A DNA stretch of 64,000 nucleotides from Escherichia coli. Lineage in GTDB: Bacteria; Pseudomonadota; Gammaproteobacteria; Enterobacterales; Enterobacteriaceae. Below the pieces are notes generated by a model, which did no database searches, was not told where the DNA came from, and saw only the letters and a list, made by a program, of their open reading frames with translations. How positions within the stretch are numbered: position 1 is the stretch's first letter; the number at the start of each line of letters is the position of its first letter. Positions 27 to 47,117 of this stretch are shown piece after piece. The stretch lies in NCBI RefSeq assembly GCF_046105845.1, contig NZ_CP151004.1; one strand, given 5' to 3'. The translations under genes were made by a program, and so were the position numbers.

Positions 27-2261
27 ATGGTTGCGGTAAGAAGTGCACATATCAATAAGGCTGGTGAATTTGATCCGGAAAAATGGATCGCAAGTCTGGG
101 TATTACCAGCCAGAAGTCGTGTGAGTGCTTAGCCGAAACCTGGGCGTATTGTCTGCAACAGACGCAGGGGCATCCGGATGCCAGTCTGTTATTGTGGCGT
201 GGTGTTGAGATGGTGGAGATCCTCTCGACATTAAGTATGGACATTGACACGCTGCGGGCGGCGCTGCTGTTCCCTCTGGCCGATGCCAACGTAGTCAGCG
301 AAGATGTGCTGCGTGAGTGCGTCGGTAAGTCGGTCGTTAACCTTATTCACGGCGTGCGTGATATGGCGGCGATCCGCCAGCTGAAAGCGACGCATACCGA
401 TTCTGTTTCCTCCGAACAGGTCGATAACGTTCGCCGGATGTTATTGGCGATGGTCGATGATTTTCGCTGCGTGGTCATCAAACTGGCGGAGCGTATTGCT
501 CATCTGCGCGAAGTAAAAGACGCGCCGGAAGATGAACGCGTACTGGCGGCAAAAGAGTGCACCAATATCTACGCGCCGTTGGCGAACCGTCTTGGGATTG
601 GACAACTGAAATGGGAGCTGGAAGATTACTGCTTCCGTTATCTCCACCCGACCGAATACAAACGCATCGCAAAACTGCTGCATGAACGCCGTCTCGACCG
701 CGAACACTATATCGAAGAGTTTGTCGGCCATCTGCGCGCTGAGATGAAAGCTGAAGGCGTTAAAGCTGAAGTGTATGGTCGTCCGAAACACATCTACAGC
801 ATCTGGCGCAAAATGCAGAAAAAGAACCTCGCCTTCGATGAGCTGTTTGATGTGCGTGCGGTACGTATTGTCGCCGAGCGTTTACAGGATTGTTATGCCG
901 CACTGGGGATAGTGCACACTCACTATCGCCACCTGCCGGATGAGTTTGACGATTACGTCGCTAACCCGAAACCAAACGGTTATCAGTCTATTCATACCGT
1001 GGTTCTGGGACCAGGTGGCAAAACCGTAGAGATCCAAATCCGCACCAAACAGATGCATGAAGATGCAGAGTTGGGTGTTGCTGCGCACTGGAAATATAAA
1101 GAAGGCGCGGCAGCTGGCGGCGCACGTTCGGGACATGAAGACCGAATTGCCTGGCTGCGTAAACTGATTGCGTGGCAGGAAGAGATGGCTGATTCCGGCG
1201 AAATGCTCGACGAAGTACGCAGCCAGGTCTTTGACGACCGGGTGTACGTCTTTACGCCGAAAGGTGACGTCGTTGATTTGCCTGCGGGATCAACGCCGCT
1301 GGACTTCGCTTACCACATCCACAGTGATGTCGGACACCGCTGCATCGGGGCAAAAATAGGCGGGCGCATTGTGCCGTTCACCTACCAGCTGCAGATGGGC
1401 GACCAGATTGAAATTATTACCCAGAAACAGCCGAACCCCAGCCGTGACTGGTTAAACCCAAACCTCGGTTACGTCACAACCAGCCGTGGGCGTTCGAAAA
1501 TTCACGCCTGGTTCCGTAAACAGGACCGTGACAAAAACATTCTGGCTGGGCGGCAAATCCTTGACGACGAGCTGGAACATCTGGGGATCAGCCTGAAAGA
1601 AGCAGAAAAACATCTGCTGCCGCGTTACAACTTCAATGATGTCGACGAGTTGCTGGCGGCAATTGGTGGCGGGGATATCCGTCTCAATCAGATGGTGAAC
1701 TTCCTGCAATCGCAATTTAATAAGCCGAGTGCCGAAGAGCAGGACGCCGCCGCGCTGAAACAGCTTCAGCAAAAAAGCTATACGCCGCAAAACCGCAGTA
1801 AAGATAACGGTCGTGTGGTGGTTGAAGGTGTCGGTAACCTGATGCACCACATCGCGCGCTGCTGCCAGCCGATTCCTGGAGATGAGATTGTCGGCTTCAT
1901 TACCCAGGGACGCGGTATTTCAGTACACCGCGCCGATTGCGAACAACTGGCGGAACTGCGCTCCCATGCGCCAGAACGTATTGTTGATGCGGTATGGGGC
2001 GAGAGCTACTCCGCCGGATATTCGCTGGTGGTCCGCGTGGTGGCTAATGATCGTAGTGGGTTGTTACGTGATATCACGACCATTCTCGCCAACGAGAAGG
2101 TGAACGTACTTGGCGTTGCCAGCCGTAGCGACACCAAACAGCAACTGGCGACCATCGACATGACCATTGAGATTTACAACCTGCAAGTGCTGGGTCGCGT
2201 GCTGGGTAAACTTAACCAGGTGCCGGATGTTATCGACGCGCGTCGGTTGCACGGGAGTTAG
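27..2261 (+). CDS. relA: GTP pyrophosphokinase, (p)ppGpp synthetase I
   Basis: 744-aa ORF; N-terminus MVAVRSAHINKAGEFDPEKW and length match RelA as recalled; followed by mazEF as in K-12. Confidence 0.95.
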   Translation: MVAVRSAHINKAGEFDPEKWIASLGITSQKSCECLAETWAYCLQQTQGHPDASLLLWRGVEMVEILSTLSMDIDTLRAALLFPLADANVVSEDVLRECVGKSVVNLIHGVRDMAAIRQLKATHTDSVSSEQVDNVRRMLLAMVDDFRCVVIKLAERIAHLREVKDAPEDERVLAAKECTNIYAPLANRLGIGQLKWELEDYCFRYLHPTEYKRIAKLLHERRLDREHYIEEFVGHLRAEMKAEGVKAEVYGRPKHIYSIWRKMQKKNLAFDELFDVRAVRIVAERLQDCYAALGIVHTHYRHLPDEFDDYVANPKPNGYQSIHTVVLGPGGKTVEIQIRTKQMHEDAELGVAAHWKYKEGAAAGGARSGHEDRIAWLRKLIAWQEEMADSGEMLDEVRSQVFDDRVYVFTPKGDVVDLPAGSTPLDFAYHIHSDVGHRCIGAKIGGRIVPFTYQLQMGDQIEIITQKQPNPSRDWLNPNLGYVTTSRGRSKIHAWFRKQDRDKNILAGRQILDDELEHLGISLKEAEKHLLPRYNFNDVDELLAAIGGGDIRLNQMVNFLQSQFNKPSAEEQDAAALKQLQQKSYTPQNRSKDNGRVVVEGVGNLMHHIARCCQPIPGDEIVGFITQGRGISVHRADCEQLAELRSHAPERIVDAVWGESYSAGYSLVVRVVANDRSGLLRDITTILANEKVNVLGVASRSDTKQQLATIDMTIEIYNLQVLGRVLGKLNQVPDVIDARRLHGS

Positions 2262-2274
2262 GCCGAAATTAGCT

Positions 2275-2320
2275 CGTATCTACAATGTAGATTGATATAT
2301 ACTGTATCTACATATGATAG
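2275..2320 (+). promoter_or_regulatory. mazEF promoter/operator with palindromes
   Basis: Perfect palindrome ATCTACA-A-TGTAGAT at 2278-2292 and related GTATCTACATATGATAG at about 2304-2320, 20-60 nt upstream of mazE start; matches the known MazE-MazF autoregulatory operator. Confidence 0.55.
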
Positions 2321-2338
2321 CGGTTTGAGGAAAGGGTT

Positions 2339-2587
2339 ATGATCCACAGTAGCGTAAAGCGTTGGGGAAATTCACCGGCGGTGCGGATCCCGGCTACGTT
2401 AATGCAGGCGCTCAATCTGAATATTGATGATGAAGTGAAGATTGACCTGGTGGATGGCAAATTAATTATTGAGCCAGTACGTAAAGAGCCCGTATTTACG
2501 CTTGCTGAACTGGTCAACGACATCACGCCGGAAAACCTCCACGAGAATATCGACTGGGGGGAGCCGAAAGATAAGGAAGTCTGGTAA
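2339..2587 (+). CDS. mazE: antitoxin MazE
   Basis: 82-aa [28 protein letters not shown]..., AbrB/MazE-like; 1-nt overlap with mazF. Confidence 0.93.
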
Positions 2588-2922
2588 TGGTAAGCCGATA
2601 CGTACCCGATATGGGCGATCTGATTTGGGTTGATTTTGACCCGACAAAAGGTAGCGAGCAAGCCGGACATCGTCCGGCTGTTGTCCTGAGTCCGTTCATG
2701 TACAACAACAAAACAGGTATGTGTCTGTGTGTTCCTTGTACAACGCAATCAAAAGGATATCCGTTCGAAGTTGTTTTATCCGGTCAGGAACGTGATGGCG
2801 TAGCGTTAGCTGATCAGGTAAAAAGTATCGCCTGGCGGGCAAGAGGAGCAACGAAGAAAGGAACGGTTGCCCCAGAGGAATTACAGCTCATTAAAGCCAA
2901 AATTAACGTGCTGATTGGGTAG
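2587..2922 (+). CDS. mazF: toxin MazF, ACA-specific endoribonuclease
   Basis: 111-aa [40 protein letters not shown]..., PemK/MazF family. Confidence 0.93.
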   Translation: MVSRYVPDMGDLIWVDFDPTKGSEQAGHRPAVVLSPFMYNNKTGMCLCVPCTTQSKGYPFEVVLSGQERDGVALADQVKSIAWRARGATKKGTVAPEELQLIKAKINVLIG

Positions 2923-2993
2923 GTGTTACTAACTCACTTCTATTCTGGTCACAGGTTTCCACCTGACAGACCCGCAATTTTCAGGACATTCTA

Positions 2994-3785
2994 ATGAATC
3001 AAATCGACCGTTTGCTCACTATTATGCAGCGCCTGCGCGATCCGGAAAATGGCTGCCCGTGGGATAAAGAGCAGACATTTGCCACCATTGCGCCTTACAC
3101 CCTTGAAGAAACCTACGAGGTGCTGGACGCCATCGCCCGTGAAGATTTTGACGATCTTCGCGGTGAACTGGGCGATCTGCTGTTCCAGGTGGTGTTTTAC
3201 GCACAAATGGCCCAGGAAGAAGGGCGCTTTGACTTTAATGATATTTGCGCCGCGATCAGCGATAAATTAGAACGTCGCCATCCGCATGTTTTTGCTGACA
3301 GTTCTGCCGAAAACAGTAGTGAAGTGCTTGCCCGTTGGGAGCAAATCAAAACCGAAGAGCGCGCGCAGAAAGCGCAGCATTCGGCGCTGGACGATATTCC
3401 TCGTAGTTTACCGGCTTTAATGCGTGCGCAAAAAATCCAGAAACGTTGCGCCAACGTTGGTTTTGACTGGACGACGCTTGGTCCGGTAGTCGATAAAGTC
3501 TACGAAGAGATCGACGAGGTGATGTACGAGGCACGGCAGGCTGTTATCGACCAGGCTAAACTGGAGGAGGAAATGGGCGACCTGCTGTTTGCCACGGTCA
3601 ATCTGGCTCGTCATTTAGGGACAAAAGCGGAAATCGCATTGCAAAAAGCGAACGAAAAATTCGAGCGTCGTTTTCGCGAAGTGGAGCGTATTGTTGCCGC
3701 GCGTGGACTGGAAATGACAGGTGTTGACCTCGAAACAATGGAAGAAGTCTGGCAACAGGTAAAACGGCAGGAAATTGATCTCTAA
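2994..3785 (+). CDS. mazG: nucleoside triphosphate pyrophosphohydrolase MazG
   Basis: 263-aa ORF, tandem MazG domains, position downstream of mazEF. Confidence 0.9.
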   Translation: MNQIDRLLTIMQRLRDPENGCPWDKEQTFATIAPYTLEETYEVLDAIAREDFDDLRGELGDLLFQVVFYAQMAQEEGRFDFNDICAAISDKLERRHPHVFADSSAENSSEVLARWEQIKTEERAQKAQHSALDDIPRSLPALMRAQKIQKRCANVGFDWTTLGPVVDKVYEEIDEVMYEARQAVIDQAKLEEEMGDLLFATVNLARHLGTKAEIALQKANEKFERRFREVERIVAARGLEMTGVDLETMEEVWQQVKRQEIDL

Positions 3786-5722: not shown

Positions 5723-7036
<1,314 letters not shown>

Positions 7037-9271: not shown

Positions 9272-10643
9272 AGAGTTCCCCGCGCCAGCGGGGATAAACC
9301 GTTGTCCTGCTGAACCAAGTAAGCCACTGACAAGAGTTCCCCGCGCCAGCGGGGATAAACCGCATTATATCCTGTGCGTCGTTCATTTATTTACGAGTTC
9401 CCCGCGCCAGCGGGGATAAACCGGCCGCCGCATGGCAAAACAAACATCGGGGTACGAGTTCCCCGCGCCAGCGGGGATAAACCGGAACGGCGGCTATACG
9501 GATTCGACAGGTCAGCGAGTTCCCCGCGCCAGCGGGGATAAACCGGATTGAATGCAGATGGTTCAATGCTCGCATTCGAGTTCCCCGCGCCAGCGGGGAT
9601 AAACCGCCACGCGTGCTTTGAGTGGATGGTGTCGCTTGGAGTTCCCCGCGCCAGCGGGGATAAACCGATACATTATTAAGCGGGCAATTTTTCCAGTTTG
9701 AGTTCCCCGCGCCAGCGGGGATAAACCGAACGGCACGGCCTGCCGCCACGTCCCGCAGCTGAGTTCCCCGCGCCAGCGGGGATAAACCGGGGCCGTGTTT
9801 TCTAACGGATTCGCACATTGCGAGTTCCCCGCGCCAGCGGGGATAAACCGCAGCAGTTCAATACTGAAATCAACATGCCGATGAGTTCCCCGCGCCAGCG
9901 GGGATAAACCGCGCGGTGGGGTTTCATTCGCATCAATTCAAGGGAGTTCCCCGCGCCAGCGGGGATAAACCGGCGGTGAGTGAGAAAATCAGGACGGCTG
10001 CGAGGAGTTCCCCGCGCCAGCGGGGATAAACCGCGCCAAATATGCTGGTGGACTTCTACGCCGATGAGTTCCCCGCGCCAGCGGGGATAAACCGCTATCG
10101 ACGGTCAAGAAAATCCACCGGAAGAAGAGTTCCCCGCGCCAGCGGGGATAAACCGGCAGCAATATATTTGACATAATAGATAACCCGGAGTTCCCCGCGC
10201 CAGCGGGGATAAACCGACGCCAGGGGAGATATAACGCGCCTGTTATGGGAGTTCCCCGCGCCAGCGGGGATAAACCGGTCTTAACTAAAAGATGACCATT
10301 CAGTCGCAGGAGTTCCCCGCGCCAGCGGGGATAAACCGCGGCCCATAATATTAATATAATCCACATGAGGGAGTTCCCCGCGCCAGCGGGGATAAACCGC
10401 GCCGGAAATCATCGTTCTGTAATTGTCTAGCGAGTTCCCCGCGCCAGCGGGGATAAACCGCCCTGTTTGTTATTCCCATTATACGTATAAGAGAGTTCCC
10501 CGCGCCAGCGGGGATAAACCGCTTCTGGCTGGAGGTGGAGAAACGGAGGCAATGAGTTCCCCGCGTTAGCGGGGATAAACCGGATTTAGAGAGCCAGACG
10601 TTGGTCAGTTATTCGAGTTCCCCGCGTCAGCGGGGATAACCAT
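9272..10643 (+). CRISPR. orphan type I-E CRISPR array, 23 repeats / 22 spacers
   Basis: 29-bp repeat GAGTTCCCCGCGCCAGCGGGGATAAACCG at 61-bp period (first interval 62); last two repeats degenerate (GCGTTAGCGGGG; GCGTCAGCGGGGATAACCAT); no cas genes adjacent. Confidence 0.97.
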
Positions 10644-26538: not shown

Positions 26539-26840
26539 GCGAGCAGCATTCCTGATTTTAAACGTGAACGCCGCTGGAAGAATCAACAGGTATATAATGG
26601 TGTCGGGTGCTTGAGGCTGTCTGGCGTTAAGCATTCGCGAGGTTCCAGATGGACAAAAGCCCCAGGCGATATTTCTATCAACCTGAGGCCAGCGTTCGAA
26701 CCCAAACAATTCGAATGTTAGTCTCTTCTTTGCAGGGAGGCAAGACATGTGTATATCACTGTAATTCGATATTTATGAGCAGCATCGAAAAATAGTCCAC
26801 TGATATCATCGATAATACTAAAAAAACAGGGAGGCTATTA

Positions 26841-29507
26841 ATGGAACCTTTTAAATATATATGTCATTACTGGGGGAAATCCTCAAAAAGCCTGACGAAA
26901 GGAAATGATATTCATCTGTTGATTTATCATTGCCTGGATGTTGCAGCTGTTGCAGATTGCTGGTGGGATCAATCAGTCGTACTACAAAATGCTTTTTGCC
27001 GAAATGAAATGCTATCAAAACAGAAGGTGAAAGCCTGGCTGTTATTTTTCATTGCCCTTCATGATATCGGAAAGTTTGATATACGATTCCAATATAAATC
27101 AGCAGAAAGTTGGCTGAAATTAAATCCTGCAACGCCATCACTTAATGGTCCATCAACACAAATGTGCCGTAAATTTAATCATGGTGCAGCCGGTCTGTAT
27201 TGGTTTAACCAGGATTCACTTTCAGAGCAATCTCCCGGGGATTTTTTCAGTTTTTTTGATGCCGCTCCTCATCCTTATGAGTCCTGGTTTCCATGGGTAG
27301 AGGCCGTTACAGGACATCATGGTTTTATATTACATTCCCAGGATCAAGATAAGTCGCGTTGGGAAATGCCAGCTTCTCTGGCATCTTATGCTGCGCAAGA
27401 TAAACAGGCTCGTGAGGAGTGGATATCTGTACTCGAAGCATTATTTTTAACGCCAGCTGGGTTATCTATAAACGATATACCACCTGATTGTTCATCACTG
27501 TTAGCAGGTTTTTGCTCGCTTGCTGACTGGTTAGGTTCCTGGACCACAACGGATACCTTTCTATTCAAAGAAGATGCACCTTCAGGCATACAAGCGCTAA
27601 GAACATATTTTCAGTATAGACAACAGGATGCGTGTCGGGTACTGGAGTTGAGTGGCCTTGTATCAAATAAGCGTAGTTATGACGGCGTACATGCCTTACT
27701 GGACAATGGCTATCAACCAAGACAATTACAGGTGTTGGTTGATGCTCTTCCTACAGCTCCCGGGCTGACGGTGATTGAGGCACCTACGGGATCAGGTAAA
27801 ACCGAAACAGCGCTGGCCTATGCCTGGAAACTTATTGACCAACAACTTGCGGAGAGTGTTATTTTTGCCCTCCCTACACAAGCTACTGCAAATGCAATGC
27901 TCAGTAGAATGGAAGCGAACGCGAGCCGTTTATTTACCTCCCCAAATCTTATTCTTGCTCATGGTAATTCACGTTTTAACCACCTTTTTCAATCAATAAA
28001 ATCACGCGCATTTACTGAGCAGGGGCAAGAAGAAGCATGGGTTCAGTGTTGCCAATGGTTGTCACAAAGTAATAAGAAAGTGTTTCTAGGGCAAATAGGC
28101 GTTTGCACGATTGATCAGGTATTGATATCGGTATTGCCAGTTAAACATCGCTTTATCCGTGGTTTGGGAATTGGTCGAAGTATTTTAATTGTTGATGAAG
28201 TTCATGCTTACGACACGTATATGAACGGCTTGCTGGAGGCTGTGCTCAAGGCTCAGGCTGATGTGGGAGGGAGTGTTATTCTTCTTTCCGCAACTCTACC
28301 AATGAAACAAAAACAGAAACTTCTGGATACTTATGGTCTGCATACAGATCCAGAGGAAAATAACTCCGCATATCCACTCATTAACTGGCGAGGTGTGAAT
28401 GGTGCACAACGTTTTGATCTGTTAGCTCATCCAGAACAACTCCCGCCCCGCTTTTCGATTCGGCCAGAACCTATTTATTTAGCTGACATGTTACCTGACC
28501 TTAGGATGTTAGAGCGAATGATCGCAGCGGCAAATGCGGGTGCACAAGTCTGTCTTATCTGCAATTTGGTTGATGTTGCACAACTATGCCACCAACGGTT
28601 AAAGGAACTAAATAACACGCAAGTAGATATAGATTTGTTTCATGCGCGCTTTACGCTGAACGATCGTCGTGAAAAAGAGAATCGAGTTATTAGCAATTTC
28701 GGCAAAAATGGGAAGCGAAATGTTGGACGGATACTTGTCGCCACCCAGGTCGTGGAACAATCACTCGACGTTGATTTTGATTGGTTAATTACTCAGCATT
28801 GCCCCGCAGATTTACTTTTCCAACGATTGGGCCGTTTACATCGCCATCATCGCAAATATCGTCCCGCTGGTTTTGAGGTTCCTCTTGCCACCGTTTTGCT
28901 GCCTGATGGCGAAGGTTACGGACGACATGAGCATATTTATAGCAACGTTAGAGTCATGTGGCGGACGCAGCAACATATTGAGGAACTTAATGGAGCATCC
29001 TTATTTTTCCCCGATGCCTACCGGCAATGGCTGGATAGCATTTACGATGATGCTGAAATGGATGAGCCAGAATGGGTCATCAAAGGCATGGATAAGTTTG
29101 AAAGCGCTGAGTGTGAAAAGAGGTTCAAGGCTCGCAAGGTTCTGCAGTGGGCTGAAGAATATAGCTTGCAGGATAACGATGAAACAATTCTTGCGGTAAC
29201 GAGGGATGGGGAAATGAGCCTGCCATTATTGCCTTATTTACAAACGTCTTCAGGTAAACAACTGCTCGATGGCCAGGTCTACGAGGACCTAAGTCATGAA
29301 CAGCAGTATGAGGCGTTAGCACTTAATCGCGTCAATGTACCCTTCACCTGGAAACGTAATTTTTCTGAAGTAGTAGATGAAGATGGGTTACTTTGGCTGG
29401 AAGGGAAACAGAATCAGAATGGATGGATCTGGCAGGGTAATAATATTGTTATTACCTACACTCGGGATGAAGGGATGACCAGAGTCATCCCTGCAAATCC
29501 CAAATAA
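26841..29507 (+). CDS. cas3: Cas3 nuclease-helicase (type I-E)
   Basis: 888-aa ORF; N-terminal HD domain (HxxxxD, IALHDIGK), DEAD/DEAH helicase motifs (GSGKTE, DEVH). Confidence 0.95.
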   Translation: MEPFKYICHYWGKSSKSLTKGNDIHLLIYHCLDVAAVADCWWDQSVVLQNAFCRNEMLSKQKVKAWLLFFIALHDIGKFDIRFQYKSAESWLKLNPATPSLNGPSTQMCRKFNHGAAGLYWFNQDSLSEQSPGDFFSFFDAAPHPYESWFPWVEAVTGHHGFILHSQDQDKSRWEMPASLASYAAQDKQAREEWISVLEALFLTPAGLSINDIPPDCSSLLAGFCSLADWLGSWTTTDTFLFKEDAPSGIQALRTYFQYRQQDACRVLELSGLVSNKRSYDGVHALLDNGYQPRQLQVLVDALPTAPGLTVIEAPTGSGKTETALAYAWKLIDQQLAESVIFALPTQATANAMLSRMEANASRLFTSPNLILAHGNSRFNHLFQSIKSRAFTEQGQEEAWVQCCQWLSQSNKKVFLGQIGVCTIDQVLISVLPVKHRFIRGLGIGRSILIVDEVHAYDTYMNGLLEAVLKAQADVGGSVILLSATLPMKQKQKLLDTYGLHTDPEENNSAYPLINWRGVNGAQRFDLLAHPEQLPPRFSIRPEPIYLADMLPDLRMLERMIAAANAGAQVCLICNLVDVAQLCHQRLKELNNTQVDIDLFHARFTLNDRREKENRVISNFGKNGKRNVGRILVATQVVEQSLDVDFDWLITQHCPADLLFQRLGRLHRHHRKYRPAGFEVPLATVLLPDGEGYGRHEHIYSNVRVMWRTQQHIEELNGASLFFPDAYRQWLDSIYDDAEMDEPEWVIKGMDKFESAECEKRFKARKVLQWAEEYSLQDNDETILAVTRDGEMSLPLLPYLQTSSGKQLLDGQVYEDLSHEQQYEALALNRVNVPFTWKRNFSEVVDEDGLLWLEGKQNQNGWIWQGNNIVITYTRDEGMTRVIPANPK

Positions 29508-29921
29508 CTTCGGGAATGATTGGTATCAATGACGATAACAAGACCAATAACGGTTTATCCCTACTTAAGTAGGGAAGGTGCACAATGTACATCTTCTTTT
29601 AATTTCCCGGTATGAGATTTTATATTCACAGTATGAATATTTTATGTAATAAAATTCATGGTGATTATTATAACTAAAAATTTCTTTGATAATAAAACGA
29701 ATAACTTGCAGATTTGAAATGCATGCATTATTGTCTTTAAACAATTCAACACATCTTAATATATGCATAGGTTAATTGTATTAAACCAATGGATATATTT
29801 TTGCAGTGAATGTGATTATTGAATTAATTACGCCGTATTTTTTCTTTGTTTTTACCGATAACGGAAGTGTGCCGACGTATAGAAATGCAGGAGAAATGTC
29901 GGAGCATATGAAGGAGAACAA
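29508..29921 (+). promoter_or_regulatory. AT-rich intergenic region upstream of cse1 (Cascade operon promoter region)
   Basis: 414-bp strongly AT-rich tract between cas3 and cse1; in K-12 the corresponding region holds the H-NS-repressed, LeuO-activated Pcas promoter. Confidence 0.55.
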
Positions 29922-31430
29922 ATGAATTTGCTTATTGATAACTGGATCCCTGTACGCCCGCGAAACGGGGGGAAAGTCCAAATCATAAATCTGCAATCGC
30001 TATACTGCAGTAGAGATCAGTGGCGATTAAGTTTGCCCCGTGACGATATGGAACTGGCCGCTTTAGCACTGCTGGTTTGCATTGGGCAAATTATCGCCCC
30101 GGCAAAAGATGACGTTGAATTTCGACATCGCATAATGAATCCGCTCACTGAAGATGAGTTTCAACAACTCATCGCGCCGTGGATAGATATGTTCTACCTT
30201 AATCACGCAGAACATCCCTTTATGCAGACCAAAGGTGTCAAAGCAAATGATGTGACTCCAATGGAAAAACTGTTGGCTGGGGTAAGCGGCGCGACGAATT
30301 GTGCATTTGTCAATCAACCGGGGCAGGGTGAAGCATTATGTGGTGGATGCACTGCGATTGCGTTATTCAACCAGGCGAATCAGGCACCTGGTTTTGGTGG
30401 TGGCTTTAAAAGCGGTTTACGTGGAGGAACACCTATAACCACCTTCGTATGTGGGATCGATCTTCGCTCGACGGTGTTACTCAATGTCCTCACAATACCT
30501 CGTCTTCAAAAACAATTTCCCAATGAATCAAATACGGAAAACCAACCTACCTGGATTAAGCCTGTCAAGCCCAATGAATCTGTGCCAGCTTCGTCAATTG
30601 GGTTTGTCCGTGGCTTATTCTGGCAACCAGCGCATATTGAATTATGCGATCCCATTGGGATTGGTAAATGTTCTTGCTGTGGACAGGAAAGCAATTTGCG
30701 TTATACAGGTTTTCTTAAGGAAAAATTTACCTTTACAGTTAATGGGCTATGGCCCCATCCGCATTCCCCTTGTCTGGTAACAGTCAAGAAAGGGGAGGTT
30801 GAGGAAAAATTTCTTGCTTTCACCACCTCCGCACCATCATGGACACAAATCAGCCGAGTTGTGGTAGATAAGATTATTCAAAATGAAAATGGAAATCGCG
30901 TGGCGGCGGTTGTGAATCAATTCAGAAATATTGCGCCGCAAAGTCCTCTTGAATTGATTATGGGGGGATATCGTAATAATCAAGCATCTATTCTTGAACG
31001 GCGTCATGATGTGTTGATGTTTAATCAGGGGTGGCAACAATACGGCAATGTGATAAACGAAATAGTGACTGTTGGTTTGGGATATAAAACAGCCTTACGC
31101 AAGGCGTTATATACCTTTGCAGAAGGGTTTAAAAATAAAGACTTCAAAGGGGCCGGAGTCTCTGTTCATGAGACTGCAGAAAGGCATTTCTATCGACAGA
31201 GTGAATTATTAATTCCCGATGTACTGGCGAATATTAATTTTTCCCAAGCTGATGAGGTAATAGCTGATCTACGAGACAAACTTCATCAATTGTGTGAAAT
31301 GCTATTTAATCAATCTGTAGCTCCCTATGCACATCATCCTAAATTAATAAGCACATTAGCGCTTGCCCGCGCCACGCTATACAAACATTTACGGGAGTTA
31401 AAACCGCAAGGAGGGTCATCAAATGGCTGA
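29922..31430 (+). CDS. casA: Cascade large subunit Cse1/CasA
   Basis: 502-aa ORF MNLLIDNWIPVRPRNGGKVQIINLQSL... Confidence 0.93.
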   Translation: MNLLIDNWIPVRPRNGGKVQIINLQSLYCSRDQWRLSLPRDDMELAALALLVCIGQIIAPAKDDVEFRHRIMNPLTEDEFQQLIAPWIDMFYLNHAEHPFMQTKGVKANDVTPMEKLLAGVSGATNCAFVNQPGQGEALCGGCTAIALFNQANQAPGFGGGFKSGLRGGTPITTFVCGIDLRSTVLLNVLTIPRLQKQFPNESNTENQPTWIKPVKPNESVPASSIGFVRGLFWQPAHIELCDPIGIGKCSCCGQESNLRYTGFLKEKFTFTVNGLWPHPHSPCLVTVKKGEVEEKFLAFTTSAPSWTQISRVVVDKIIQNENGNRVAAVVNQFRNIAPQSPLELIMGGYRNNQASILERRHDVLMFNQGWQQYGNVINEIVTVGLGYKTALRKALYTFAEGFKNKDFKGAGVSVHETAERHFYRQSELLIPDVLANINFSQADEVIADLRDKLHQLCEMLFNQSVAPYAHHPKLISTLALARATLYKHLRELKPQGGSSNG

Positions 31431-31905
31431 TGAAATTGATGCAATAGCTTTATATCGAGCCTGGCAACAACTGGATAATGGAGCATGTGCGCAAATTAGA
31501 CGTGTTTCAGAACCTGATGAATTACGCGATATCCCTGCGTTTTATAGGCTGGTGCAACCTTTTGGTTGGGAAAACCCACGTCACCAGCAGGCTCTTTTGC
31601 GCATGGTGTTTTGCCTGAGCGCAGGAAAGAATGTCATCCGACATCAGGACAAAAAACCGGAGCAAATAACAGGTATCTCGTTGGGAAGAGCTTTAGCCAA
31701 TAGTGGAAGAATTAACGAGCGCCGTATCTTTCAATTAATTCGGGCTGACAGAACAGCCGATATGGTCCAGTTACGTCGATTACTTACTCACGCCGAACCC
31801 GTACTTGACTGGCCATTAATGGCCAGGATGTTGACCTGGTGGGGAAAGCGCGAACGCCAGCAACTTCTGGAAGATTTTGTATTGACCACAAACAAAAATG
31901 CGTAA
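31423..31905 (+). CDS. casB: Cascade small subunit Cse2/CasB
   Basis: 160-aa ORF, 8-nt overlap with cse1. Confidence 0.9.
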   Translation: MADEIDAIALYRAWQQLDNGACAQIRRVSEPDELRDIPAFYRLVQPFGWENPRHQQALLRMVFCLSAGKNVIRHQDKKPEQITGISLGRALANSGRINERRIFQLIRADRTADMVQLRRLLTHAEPVLDWPLMARMLTWWGKRERQQLLEDFVLTTNKNA

Positions 31906-31917
31906 GGAAACCTTTCT

Positions 31918-33009
31918 ATGTCTAACTTTATCAATATTCATGTTCTGATCTCTCACAGCCCTTCATGTCTGAACCGCGACGATATGAACATGCAGAAAGA
32001 CGCTATTTTCGGCGGGAAAAGACGAGTAAGAATTTCAAGTCAAAGCCTTAAACGTGCGATGCGTAAAAGTGATTATTACGCACAAAATATTGGTGAATCC
32101 AGTCTCAGAACAATTCATCTTGCACAATTACGTGATGTTCTTCGGCAAAAACTTGGTGAACGTTTTGACCAAAAAATCATCGATAAGACATTAGCGCTGC
32201 TCTCCGGTAAATTAGTTGATGAAGCCGAAAAGATTTCTGCCGATGCGGTTACTCCATGGGTTGTGGGAGAAATAGCCTGGTTCTGTGAGCAGGTTGCAAA
32301 AGCAGAGGCTGATAATCTGGATGATAAAAAGCTGCTCAAAGTTCTTAAGGAAGATATTGCCGCCATACGTGTGAATTTACAGCAGGGTGTTGATATTGCG
32401 CTTAGTGGAAGAATGGCAACCAGCGGCATGATGAGTGAGTTGGGAAAAGTTGATGGTGCAATGTCCATTGCGCATGCGATCACTACTCATCAGGTTGATT
32501 CTGATATTGACTGGTTCACCGCTGTAGATGATTTACAGGAACAAGGTTCTGCACATCTGGGAACTCAGGAATTTTCATCGGGTGTTTTTTATCGTTATGC
32601 CAACATTAACCTCGCTCAACTTCAGGAAAATTTAGGTGGAGCCTCCAGGGAGCAGGCTCTGGAAATTGCAACCCATGTTGTTCATATGCTGGCAACAGAG
32701 GTCCCTGGAGCAAAACAGCGTACTTATGCCGCTTTTAACCCTGCGGATATGGTAATGGTTAATTTCTCCGATATGCCACTTTCTATGGCAAATGCTTTTG
32801 AAAAAGCGGTTAAAGCGAAAGATGGCTTTTTGCAACCGTCTATACAGGCGTTTAATCAATATTGGGATCGCGTTGCCAATGGATATGGTCTGAACGGAGC
32901 AGCTGCGCAATTCAGCTTATCTGATGTAGACCCAATTACTGCTCAAGTTAAACAAATGCCTACTTTAGAACAGTTAAAATCCTGGGTTCGTAATAATGGC
33001 GAGGCGTGA
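31918..33009 (+). CDS. casC: Cascade backbone Cas7/CasC
   Basis: 363-aa [52 protein letters not shown]... Confidence 0.93.
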
Positions 33010-33011
33010 AC

Positions 33012-33686
33012 ATGAGATCTTATTTGATCTTGCGGCTTGCTGGGCCAATGCAAGCCTGGGGGCAGCCGACCTTTGAAGGAACGCGACCTACCAGAAGATT
33101 TCCGACCCGAAGCGGGTTATTAGGGCTACTCGGGGCTTGTCTTGGGATCCAACGTGATGATACTTCTTCATTACAGGCGTTATCAGAGAGTGTGCAATTT
33201 GCAGTGCGCTGCGATGAACTCATTCTTGACGATCGTCGTGTGTCTGTAACGGGGTTGCGTGATTACCATACAGTCCTTGGAGCGCGAGAAGATTACCGTG
33301 GTTTGAAAAGTCATGAAACGATTCAAACATGGCGCGAATATTTATGTGATGCCTCCTTTACCGTCGCTCTCTGGTTAACACCCCATGCAACGATGGTTAT
33401 CTCAGAACTTGAAAAAGCAGTATTAAAGCCTCGGTATACACCCTACCTGGGGCGAAGAAGTTGCCCACTAACACACCCGCTTTTTTTGGGGACATGTCAG
33501 GCATCGGATCCTCAGAAGGCGCTATTAAATTATGAGCCCGTTGGCGGCGATATTTATAGTGAGGAATCAGTTACAGGGCATCATTTAAAATTTACGGCGC
33601 GCGACGAACCGATGATCACCTTACCTCGACAATTTGCTTCCCGAGAATGGTATGTGATTAAAGGAGGTATGGATGTATCTCAGTAA
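33012..33686 (+). CDS. casD: Cascade Cas5/CasD
   Basis: 224 aa from MRSYLILRLAGPMQAWGQPTFEG... Confidence 0.9.
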   Translation: MRSYLILRLAGPMQAWGQPTFEGTRPTRRFPTRSGLLGLLGACLGIQRDDTSSLQALSESVQFAVRCDELILDDRRVSVTGLRDYHTVLGAREDYRGLKSHETIQTWREYLCDASFTVALWLTPHATMVISELEKAVLKPRYTPYLGRRSCPLTHPLFLGTCQASDPQKALLNYEPVGGDIYSEESVTGHHLKFTARDEPMITLPRQFASREWYVIKGGMDVSQ

Positions 33687-34272
33687 AGTCATCATTGCCA
33701 GGGCCTGGAGCAGGGATCTTTACCAACTTCACCAGGGATTATGGCATTTATTTCCAAACAGACCGGATGCTGCTCGTGATTTTCTTTTTCATGTTGAGAA
33801 GCGAAACACACCAGAAGGCTGTCATGTTTTATTGCAGTCAGCGCAAATACCTGTTTCAACTGCCGTTGCGACAGTCATTAAAACTAAACAGGTTGAATTT
33901 CAACTTCAGGTTGGTGTTCCACTCTATTTTCGGCTTCGGGCAAATCCGATCAAAACTATTCTCGACAATCAAAAGCGCCTGGACAGTAAAGGGAATATTA
34001 AACGCTGTCGGGTTCCGTTAATAAAAGAAGCAGAACAAATCGCGTGGTTGCAACGTAAATTGGGCAATGCGGCGCGCGTTGAAGATGTGCATCCCATATC
34101 GGAACGGCCACAGTATTTTTCTGGTGATGGTAAAAGTGGAAAGATCCAAACGGTTTGCTTTGAAGGGGTGATCACCATCAACGACGCGCCAGTGTTAATA
34201 GATCTTGTACAGCAAGGTATTGGGCCAGCTAAATCGATGGGATGTGGCTTGCTATCTTTGGCTCCACTGTGA
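33673..34272 (+). CDS. casE: Cas6e/CasE crRNA endoribonuclease
   Basis: 199-aa ORF MYLSKVIIARAWSRDLYQLHQGLWHLF...; overlaps cas5 end. Confidence 0.93.
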   Translation: MYLSKVIIARAWSRDLYQLHQGLWHLFPNRPDAARDFLFHVEKRNTPEGCHVLLQSAQIPVSTAVATVIKTKQVEFQLQVGVPLYFRLRANPIKTILDNQKRLDSKGNIKRCRVPLIKEAEQIAWLQRKLGNAARVEDVHPISERPQYFSGDGKSGKIQTVCFEGVITINDAPVLIDLVQQGIGPAKSMGCGLLSLAPL

Positions 34273-34287
34273 TTGAGGTGTAATAAA

Positions 34288-35491
<1,204 letters not shown>

Positions 35492-35596
35492 AAACAAAGA
35501 ATTAGCTGATCTTTAATAATAAGGAAATGTTACATTAAGGTTGGTGGGTTGTTTTTATGGGAAAAAATGCTTTAAGAACAAATGTATACTTTTAGA
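35492..35596 (+). promoter_or_regulatory. CRISPR leader of cas-adjacent array
   Basis: AT-rich ...ATGCTTTAAGAACAAATGTATACTTTTAGA directly 5' of first repeat. Confidence 0.8.
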
Positions 35597-37089
35597 GAGT
35601 TCCCCGCGCCAGCGGGGATAAACCGTCCGATCCGAAAAAACGGGTAGTCGCCTACGAGAGTTCCCCGCGCCAGCGGGGATAAACCGCCCAGTGGCGAAGG
35701 GCAACGTAAGCATAAAACGAGTTCCCCGCGCCAGCGGGGATAAACCGGGGTAACACCGTGGCAGCAAGTCGATCCGCTGGAGTTCCCCGCGCCAGCGGGG
35801 ATAAACCTGATGCGCGCCGACTTGAATCACTGCGCATGGCGAGTTCCCCGCGCCAGCGGGGATAAACCGATGGACCGTGCCGCTTTTCGCCACCTGACGC
35901 CGAGTTCCCCGCGCCAGCGGGGATAAACCGTGGCTCCGGTCGGGGCCCGCCGCTTGCGGTGGGAGTTCCCCGCGCCAGCGGGGATAAACCGGTGCGTGAA
36001 TTATCTATCCAGGCAAAAGTAACGAGTTCCCCGCGCCAGCGGGGATAAACCGCATATTTTTCAGGATATCTATAAATGGGCGGGGAGTTCCCCGCGCCAG
36101 CGGGGATAAACCGCTCATCAAAATAATCGGCATTGTCAGAAATCCGAGTTCCCCGCGCCAGCGGGGATAAACCGTGCACTGGCTGACTACGCCGCAGCAC
36201 ATAAATGAGTTCCCCGCGCCAGCGGGGATAAACCGATAATTGATGCGATCTGGTCCACTACAGTGGCGAGTTCCCCGCGCCAGCGGGGATAAACCGTAGT
36301 TGCTGTTTAGGCTGTGTTGTGGTTACCAGAGTTCCCCGCGCCAGCGGGGATAAACCGACCTGCTCGCGATGCGTCTGCCGCTGGAACCCGAGTTCCCCGC
36401 GCCAGCGGGGATAAACCGTTGCGCGATCCATCGCTCAGCTTTGATCATGAGAGTTCCCCGCGCCAGCGGGGATAAACCGCGCAGCGCCGACGAACTGGAC
36501 GGCGCTATAAAGAGTTCCCCGCGCCAGCGGGGATAAACCGATGTGGCAGAAATTGATGGAGCGGATGTGCGAGAGTTCCCCGCGCCAGCGGGGATAAACC
36601 GATTTAGATACGGCACACAGGAATGCGCTGGATGAGTTCCCCGCGCCAGCGGGGATAAACCGCGGCTGGCTGTAATAATGCACGGCAGTGTGACGAGTTC
36701 CCCGCGCCAGCGGGGATAAACCGTGAATAATAAGGCGCTGACGGGCGATATTACGGAGTTCCCCGCGCCAGCGGGGATAAACCGGAACAACCTGAACGGA
36801 TGCCACCTTTTCACCTGAGTTCCCCGCGCCAGCGGGGATAAACCAACCGTCAGCATAGACCCATCTAGTCAGATTCTGTGTTCCCCGCGCCAGCGGGGAT
36901 AAACCGGCCCATTCCCCCCATACCGGCGGCAAGTTTAAGTGTTCCCCGCGCCAGCGGGGATAAACCGATTCCGTCAAATTTATCACTCAACGCCAGTTCG
37001 TGTTCCCCGCGCCAGCGGGGATAAACCGGGCGCACTGGATGCGATGATGGATATCACTTAGAATTCCCCGCCCCTGCGGTAGAACTCGC
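35597..37089 (+). CRISPR. type I-E CRISPR array, 25 repeats / 24 spacers
   Basis: 29-bp repeat GAGTTCCCCGCGCCAGCGGGGATAAACCG at strict 61-bp period; last three full repeats begin GTGTTCCCC; terminal repeat degenerate (GAATTCCCCGCCCCTGCGGTAGAACTCGC). Confidence 0.98.
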
Positions 37090-37109
37090 AGCTCTCATTT
37101 TCAACCCCA

Positions 37110-45977: not shown

Positions 45978-47117
45978 ATGAGCGCGGGAAGCCCAAAATT
46001 CACCGTTCGCCGCATTGCGGCTTTGTCACTGGTTTCGCTATGGCTGGCAGGCTGTTCTGACACTTCAAATCCACCGGCCCCGGTAAGCTCCGTTAATGGC
46101 AATGCGCCTGCAAATACCAATTCTGGTATGTTGATTACGCCGCCGCCGAAAATGGGGACGACGTCTACAGCTCAGCAACCGCAAATTCAGCCGGTACAGC
46201 AGCCACAAATTCAGGCAACTCAACAACCGCAAATCCAGCCGGTGCAGCCAGTAGCTCAGCAGCCGGTACAGATGGAAAACGGACGCATCGTCTACAACCG
46301 TCAGTATGGGAACATTCCGAAAGGCAGTTATAGCGGCAGTACCTATACCGTGAAAAAAGGCGACACACTTTTCTATATCGCCTGGATTACTGGCAACGAT
46401 TTCCGTGACCTTGCTCAGCGCAACAATATTCAGGCACCATACGCGCTGAACGTCGGTCAGACCTTACAGGTGGGTAATGCTTCCGGTACGCCAATCACTG
46501 GCGGAAATGCCATTACCCAGGCCGACGCAGCAGAGCAAGGAGTTGTGATCAAGCCTGCACAAAATTCCACCGTTGCTGTTGCGTCGCAACCGACAATTAC
46601 GTATTCTGAGTCTTCGGGTGAACAGAGTGCTAACAAAATGTTGCCGAACAACAAGCCAACTGCGACCACGGTCACAGCGCCTGTAACGGTACCAACAGCA
46701 AGCACAACCGAGCCGACTGTCAGCAGTACATCAACCAGTACGCCTATCTCCACCTGGCGTTGGCCGACTGAGGGCAAAGTGATCGAAACCTTTGGCGCTT
46801 CTGAGGGGGGCAACAAGGGGATTGATATCGCAGGCAGCAAAGGACAGGCAATTATCGCGACCGCAGATGGCCGCGTTGTTTATGCCGGTAACGCGCTGCG
46901 CGGCTACGGTAATCTGATTATCATCAAACATAATGATGATTACCTGAGTGCCTACGCCCATAACGACACAATGCTGGTCCGGGAACAACAAGAAGTGAAG
47001 GCGGGGCAAAAAATAGCAACCATGGGTAGCACCGGAACCAGTTCAACACGCTTGCATTTTGAAATTCGTTACAAGGGGAAATCCGTAAACCCGCTGCGTT
47101 ATTTGCCGCAGCGATAA
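45978..47117 (+). CDS. nlpD: lipoprotein NlpD (LysM + M23 peptidase-like)
   Basis: 379-aa ORF with lipobox (LAGCS), QQPQIQ tandem repeats, LysM and C-terminal M23 domain; in K-12 the main rpoS promoter lies inside this gene (not verified here). Confidence 0.93.

Follow-up and report, generated by a model that had tools for sequence, protein, structure and literature searches.

The mazEF module of Escherichia coli K-12 (chpAI/chpAK; b2783/b2782) is the closest described relative of the locus considered here, and it is already thoroughly known, as the initial annotation acknowledged in calling it well described. Binding of the antitoxin MazE to three operator sites, a, b and c, has been measured, and the toxin MazF enhances that binding (PMC4333400). 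Autoregulation acts at the P2 promoter, and mazG lies within the same operon (PMC1626106). MazF cleaves RNA at ACA sequences, and the mazF mRNA is itself cleaved in this way (PMC5888573). The physiological role of the module is disputed, with stress arrest, programmed death, phage exclusion and mere addiction all having been put forward (PMC7167474).

More distant relatives share parts of this design. The E. coli paralogue chpB (ChpS/ChpB) has the same Pfam families and type II architecture in common with the pair described below, but the ChpS and ChpB NCBIfam models score this pair at only 34.6 and 55.2 bits, far under their cut-offs of 101 and 129, and chpB sits at another chromosomal locus. 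The Kis/Kid system (parD of plasmid R1), which is the same as PemI/PemK of R100, shares the MazF/PemK fold, and Kid (1M1F) is matched by the toxin at E = 7.6e-9; it differs in being plasmid-borne, in acting through post-segregational killing, in its distant sequence and in its RNA specificity. Bacillus subtilis EndoA/EndoAI (YdcE/YdcD) and the Mycobacterium MazF paralogues also have the PemK/MazF fold (1NE8, 4MDX and 5HJZ; E values from 1e-8 to 1e-5), but their sequences are remote, their recognition motifs are other ones and their antitoxins have other folds. Toxin-modulated operator binding by the antitoxin has been discussed as a model for Kis/Kid (PMC4333400).

We analyzed a 64,000-nucleotide stretch of E. 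coli DNA (contig NZ_CP151004.1), referred to throughout as the window, in which a mazEF pair follows relA. The features of the locus and its surroundings are as follows.

27-2261, plus strand: relA, (p)ppGpp synthetase I, 744 aa, with HD_4, RelA_SpoT, TGS and ACT domains
2262-2959, plus strand: mazEF cassette of 698 bp, comprising promoter/operator, mazE, mazF and a 37-nt 3' tail, delimited by alignment with L002, a genome that lacks mazEF
2339-2587, plus strand: mazE, 82 aa, from the ORF list; matches PF04014, NF007312, 1MVF_D and 1UB4_C
2587-2922, plus strand: mazF, 111 aa, from the ORF list; matches PF02452, NF007386 and 3NFC_A
2923-2993, plus strand: mazF-mazG spacer, with the right cassette junction at 2959/2960
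2994-3785, plus strand: mazG, nucleoside triphosphate pyrophosphohydrolase, 263 aa, PF03819 at 133.9 bits
4013-5650, plus strand: ORF of 545 aa, from the ORF list
5738-7036, plus strand: ORF of 432 aa, from the ORF list
2228-2627, minus strand: aMEF antisense RNA (K-12 ncRNA ameF, b4844), placed by positional homology with the K-12 annotation

Genes and proteins of the mazEF pair

The gene order, relA-mazE-mazF-mazG-pyrG-eno, is that of K-12. The relA stop codon (TAG, 2259-2261) ends at 2261, making 2262 the first intergenic base, and with mazG starting at 2994 the linkage to relA that had been proposed for this pair is correct. RefSeq annotation likewise places mazE and mazF between relA and mazG in 4415 E. 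coli genomes, and also in K-12 and VCSW7. Terminator prediction gave nothing on the plus strand between mazF and mazG, which is compatible with the reported read-through into mazG (PMC1626106); a mazEFG transcript was not reproducibly detected in other work (PMC8749433).

The two ORFs have the layout of a type II TA operon: a small, co-oriented pair with the antitoxin first, an overlap between the genes and a ribosome-binding site for each. The overlap that the initial annotation had recorded is a single nucleotide at 2587, where the TAA of mazE (2585-2587) ends on the A that opens the mazF ATG (2587-2589), giving TAATG. Shine-Dalgarno-like sequences precede both genes, GAGGA at 2327-2331 before mazE and AAGGAAG at 2573-2579 before mazF. 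We considered a minus-strand ORF of 146 aa (2308-2748) as a further gene and rejected it; it is an antisense frame of mazE/mazF whose start lies upstream of where aMEF begins, and it is unannotated in both K-12 and VCSW7.

Profile searches identify both products well above threshold. MazE scores 52.9 bits against Pfam PF04014 (MazE_antitoxin; gathering cut-off 24.7) and 196.2 bits against the NCBIfam equivalog NF007312 (cut-off 113), and MazF scores 84.8 bits against PF02452 (PemK_toxin; gathering cut-off 23.1) and 227.4 bits against the equivalog NF007386 (cut-off 120). At the level of known structures, MazE is identical to 1MVF_D at 82 of 82 positions, with full-length identity of 100% to 1UB4_C as well, and MazF is identical to 3NFC_A at 111 of 111 positions and 100% identical to 5CK9 and 1UB4_A. 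Going by these matches, MazE is the labile antitoxin, 82 aa long, which also acts as a DNA-binding repressor; its N-terminus is an AbrB/SpoVT-like swapped-hairpin domain and its disordered C-tail binds MazF. MazF is the 111-aa ACA-specific endoribonuclease toxin.

Residue E24 of MazF is kept in the translation, as are R29 and T52, which we take to bear a role alongside it. An E24A mutant of MazF is inactive (PMC5888573). MazF of K-12 has been shown to cleave single-stranded RNA specifically at ACA and to arrest growth when expressed (PMC5888573), and the MazF of this strain, which matches it at 100% identity, would be expected to do likewise.

Alignment to K-12 was the check proposed for the pair, and over 661 nt it gave nine substitutions relative to MG1655 and no frameshift. 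One of them is intergenic, at 2271, where this strain has A and K-12 has T, two nucleotides upstream of the operator oligo described below and outside the operator. The other eight lie at 2479 and 2560 in mazE and at 2664, 2676, 2694, 2865, 2886 and 2910 in mazF, and all eight are synonymous, as follows from the identity of both proteins to those of K-12. Just past the mazF stop, the mazF-mazG spacer carries a 1-bp indel that throws the ungapped comparison off register beyond 2922, and differences were accordingly counted up to that position. The A-to-G change at 2865 turns an ACA into ACG (2863-2865) and so removes one MazF cleavage motif from mazF, leaving eight there and two in mazE in this strain, compared to nine in mazF and two in mazE in K-12 (PMC5888573); the effect of this loss is probably negligible.

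In sum, the locus shares with K-12 mazEF its proteins, its 50-bp operator, its relA-mazE-mazF-mazG order and its 1-nt overlap, and differs in the spacer indel and in nine silent or intergenic bases, one of which costs mazF an ACA and three of which fall in the aMEF promoter fragment. We conclude that it is almost certainly the canonical chromosomal mazEF (chpA) type II TA module of E. coli, intact and identical to K-12 at the protein level, a conclusion drawn from sequence comparison. The opposite reading, that it is a decayed remnant with a pseudogene toxin or a lost operator, has next to no probability, and the sequence already refutes it. Reviews report frequent decay of chromosomal TA loci (PMC7167474), and one ACA and three bases of the aMEF promoter fragment have changed relative to K-12, but neither ORF is shortened, both products are 100% identical to active, crystallized proteins, the operator is the same as in K-12 and the ribosome-binding sites are intact.

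Operator, proposed regulation and antisense RNA

The region between relA and mazE contains the operator, which resolves into three sites.

2273-2322, plus strand: mazEF operator 'cab', with three MazE-dimer sites, assigned by oligo match
2276-2294, unstranded: operator site c, GTATCTACAATGTAGATTG, containing the perfect palindrome at 2278-2292
2292-2305, unstranded: operator site a, TTGATATATACTGT, containing the ATATAT palindrome at 2295-2300
2297-2315, unstranded: operator site b, ATATACTGTATCTACATAT, containing the third arm, ATCTACAT, at 2306-2313

From the sequence, the initial annotation had described alternating palindromes, one motif and a related copy, upstream of mazE. The motif, ATCTACAATGTAGAT, is present exactly at 2278-2292 and occurs only once in the 64 kb; it consists of two 7-nt arms around one central base (ATCTACA-A-TGTAGAT). 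The related copy corresponds to site b. A direct repeat, GTATCTACA, is found at 2276-2284 and again at 2304-2312, and the arm between them, ATGTAGAT (2285-2292), is fully complementary both to ATCTACA at 2278-2284 and to ATCTACAT at 2306-2313. Being complementary in both directions, this middle arm can pair with either the upstream or the downstream arm, which is the geometry meant by 'alternating'. That term, alternating palindrome, was reportedly coined for the mazEF operator by Marianovsky et al. in 2001. A repeat finder also returned ATATAT/TATATA palindromes at 2295-2301, between the operator arms. Zorzini et al. 2015 use the letter c for the site with the perfect palindrome and a for the central site, the one with the ATATAT palindrome.

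The annotation had also equated these palindromes with the site of MazE-MazF autoregulation, and the match to characterized DNA bears this out. Positions 2273-2322 agree at 50 of 50 bases with the 'cab' oligo, CTCGTATCTACAATGTAGATTGATATATACTGTATCTACATATGATAGCG(T), covering all but the last of its 51 bases, a match for which zero occurrences are expected by chance; this oligo was used in isothermal titration calorimetry (ITC) of MazE binding (PMC4333400). Of the three single sites, c is bound most tightly by MazE(1-50), with a Kd of 0.6 uM (PMC4333400). The same stretch has zero differences from K-12. Thus, as far as sequence can establish autorepression, the DNA at 2273-2322 is identical to DNA that MazE binds. 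Neither a frameshift in mazF nor a loss of the operator palindrome, either of which was to count against the assignment, was found.

Palindromes of this kind are not in themselves rare. Perfect 7-(0/1)-7 palindromes number 13 across the window, against a mean of 7.8 in shuffled sequence, and when the 77-nt intergenic region was shuffled, a palindrome appeared in 228 of 20,000 shuffles (1.1%), and a palindrome plus a copy of the third arm in 1 of 20,000. At the level of sequence, it is the identity to a characterized site that excludes a chance origin of the operator palindromes outright. A scan with the sigma-70 consensus found no convincing match for the published P2 and P3 promoters; the lone hit in the region, matching 9 of 12 positions at 2314-2343, runs into the mazE start and is of a quality seen at chance frequency.

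The mechanism proposed for this locus comes from experiments in K-12 and is carried over to this strain on the grounds that neither its proteins nor its operator differs from those of K-12. The two genes would be co-transcribed from the promoter region just 3' of relA, and the TAATG overlap would be compatible with translational coupling. MazF dimers would cut single-stranded RNA at ACA and thereby shut down translation, unless they are inactivated by MazE, one dimer of which links two of MazF by way of its disordered C-tails. With the assistance of MazF, the N-terminal domain of MazE would occupy c-a-b at 2273-2322, repressing the module's own promoter. MazE would be proteolyzed by ClpAP/Lon, as has been reported for the identical K-12 protein (PMC1626106, for ClpPA; PMC8749433), so that a block in expression would free MazF. 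MazF may, in addition, trim its own mRNA at ACA sites.

A further layer of control may come from the antisense RNA aMEF. By position, its mapped 5' end falls at 2627, 40 nt inside mazF, from where it spans mazE and the operator and ends within the last 34 nt of relA. In K-12, aMEF is transcribed from a non-canonical promoter and, without requiring RNase III, boosts the synthesis of both MazE and MazF and favors a monocistronic mazE transcript (PMC8749433); here it would tune the ratio of the mazE to the mazEF transcript. Three of the substitutions relative to K-12 (2664, 2676 and 2694), all of them silent in mazF, fall in the 75-bp fragment that holds the aMEF promoter (2628-2702).

A cassette that is present or absent between relA and mazG

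The span first assigned to the module, 2262-2922, correctly takes in everything past the relA stop through the end of mazF, but the unit that varies between strains is longer and ends at 2959. Its limits come from L002. Up to 2261, L002 and the window are identical at 41 of 41 positions, and from 2960 onward at 77 of 77; between these flanks L002 has an unrelated 61 bp in place of the cassette. The left junction thus lies exactly at the relA stop, which the cassette abuts, and the right junction precedes the mazG start by 34 nt and is spanned by a short hairpin (CAGGT-TTCC-ACCTG). In the junction alignment, no terminal repeats, whether direct or inverted, were evident at either end of the cassette.

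Across 5426 complete E. coli genomes, the flanks were matched in all but one. The cassette is present in 4415 (approximately 81%) and absent from approximately 19%; in 1007 the 61-bp filler takes its place, and one or the other allele is found in 5422 of the 5426. In genomes lacking mazEF, mazG comes directly after relA. The filler, TCTTACATAGCTGGATATGGCGTCAGCCGTATCCAGCGATATCTTTTACTCGAAGGTATTA (L002 663-723, NZ_CM139235.1), folds into two hairpins with a predicted energy of -28.9 kcal/mol, the first of which is similar to a terminator for relA or to a REP-like stem. We considered whether the filler might be a dispersed REP-like repeat and rejected the idea, as each genome that has it carries a single copy, which invariably sits at the 3' end of relA.

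Variation at this spot has been noted before. According to a review, mazEF was inserted into an operon of relA and mazG that is undisturbed in strains such as UTI89; the review also reports that in Salmonella parDE occupies the same spot between relA and mazG, with the mobility of such TA loci unexplained (PMC7167474). The presence/absence polymorphism is therefore already published, as is aMEF at this locus; the precise junctions and the structure of the filler may not be. The relA-mazG spacer could be a hotspot for site-specific exchange of cassettes, with the filler as a recognition or attachment element or a scar, although we consider this a long shot.

One reading of the module's role, possible but in our view somewhat doubtful, is that mazEF is a selfish, addictive cassette lodged in the relA-mazG spacer, with neither a dedicated host function nor a functional tie to relA. 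In its favor are the clean two-state distribution, with the cassette in 4415 genomes against a single-copy filler in 1007, the sharp junctions at the relA stop and ahead of mazG, and the GC content of the cassette, which at 46.6% is lower than that of relA (53.7%) or mazG (51.0%). The view of mazEF as a selfish insertion has also been argued in review (PMC7167474). However, the cassette is kept in some four-fifths of complete genomes, and between this strain and K-12 the proteins are identical and the coding changes only synonymous. Such retention indicates purifying selection, which addiction itself could also yield. Stress phenotypes have been published for K-12 as well, though they are disputed.

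Defense, stress and other modules in the window

The initial annotation listed the pair as the second 'defence or stress module' of the window. The defense part of this label is weakly founded, given the dispute over the role of mazEF and a search of PADLOC-DB v2 in which zero families matched MazE or MazF at E <= 0.001. With no PADLOC model to place the pair among defense systems, 'stress/addiction module' is the safer term.

That mazEF is primarily an anti-phage system acting by abortive infection is unlikely. Deletion of mazEF has been found to raise P1 infection loads, as cited in a review (PMC7167474), and a type I-E CRISPR-Cas locus lies in the window, about 24 kb off. Nevertheless, beyond the lack of a PADLOC match for either protein, the cassette sits between housekeeping genes rather than in a defense island, and phage exclusion has been supported for no more than a few phages, in K-12.

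Other features of the window concern the CRISPR-Cas locus and its surroundings. The type I-E system is complete (cas3-cse1-cse2-cas7-cas5-cas6e-cas1-cas2, 26841-35491, plus strand), with Pfam confirming the Cas3 HD/helicase, Cse1, Cse2, Cas7 (CT1975), Cas5, Cas6e, Cas1 and Cas2, and it is presumably what the initial annotation had in mind as the first defense module. Two CRISPR arrays with the repeat GAGTTCCCCGCGCCAGCGGGGATAAACCG are present, at 36268-36784 and 9455-10522.

Over the mazEF region, the best DNA matches, at 99.9%, are two Hong Kong soil isolates; elsewhere in the window identity is approximately 98-98.6%, and two segments differ. Collinearity over the whole window was checked against one genome. 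VCSW7, the nearest full-length genome match, lacks the cas block: 26750-37094 has no counterpart there, and a hok/gef gene is found instead. The Rfam sok model (RF01794) matches just upstream of cas3, at 26605-26761 on the plus strand, scoring 103.7 bits where the gathering threshold is 59. No intact Hok-like ORF adjoins this match, and the Hok/Gef coding sequence of VCSW7 (MLTKYALVAIIVLC...) begins exactly where homology with the window breaks. The sok match looks like a remnant of a hok/sok locus truncated at the cas3 junction; K-12 carries a similar remnant, sokX. The second segment that is not collinear with VCSW7, 9302-10616, measures approximately 1.3 kb here and approximately 0.6 kb in VCSW7. 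Its position is that of the CRISPR array near queE/ygcE, and the difference is therefore probably one of spacer content. Finally, a 24-nt tandem repeat at 46171-46240 (2.9 copies, 69% matches) lies inside nlpD, as judged by collinearity with VCSW7, and probably is the known repetitive region that codes for a Gln/Pro-rich linker.

Returning to the pair downstream of relA, mazEF was one of the earliest chromosomal TA systems to be reported and ranks with the most studied of them, and its identification here as the canonical, intact module adds little that is new beyond correct annotation. This copy serves instead as a positive control for recognizing a known module from raw sequence.
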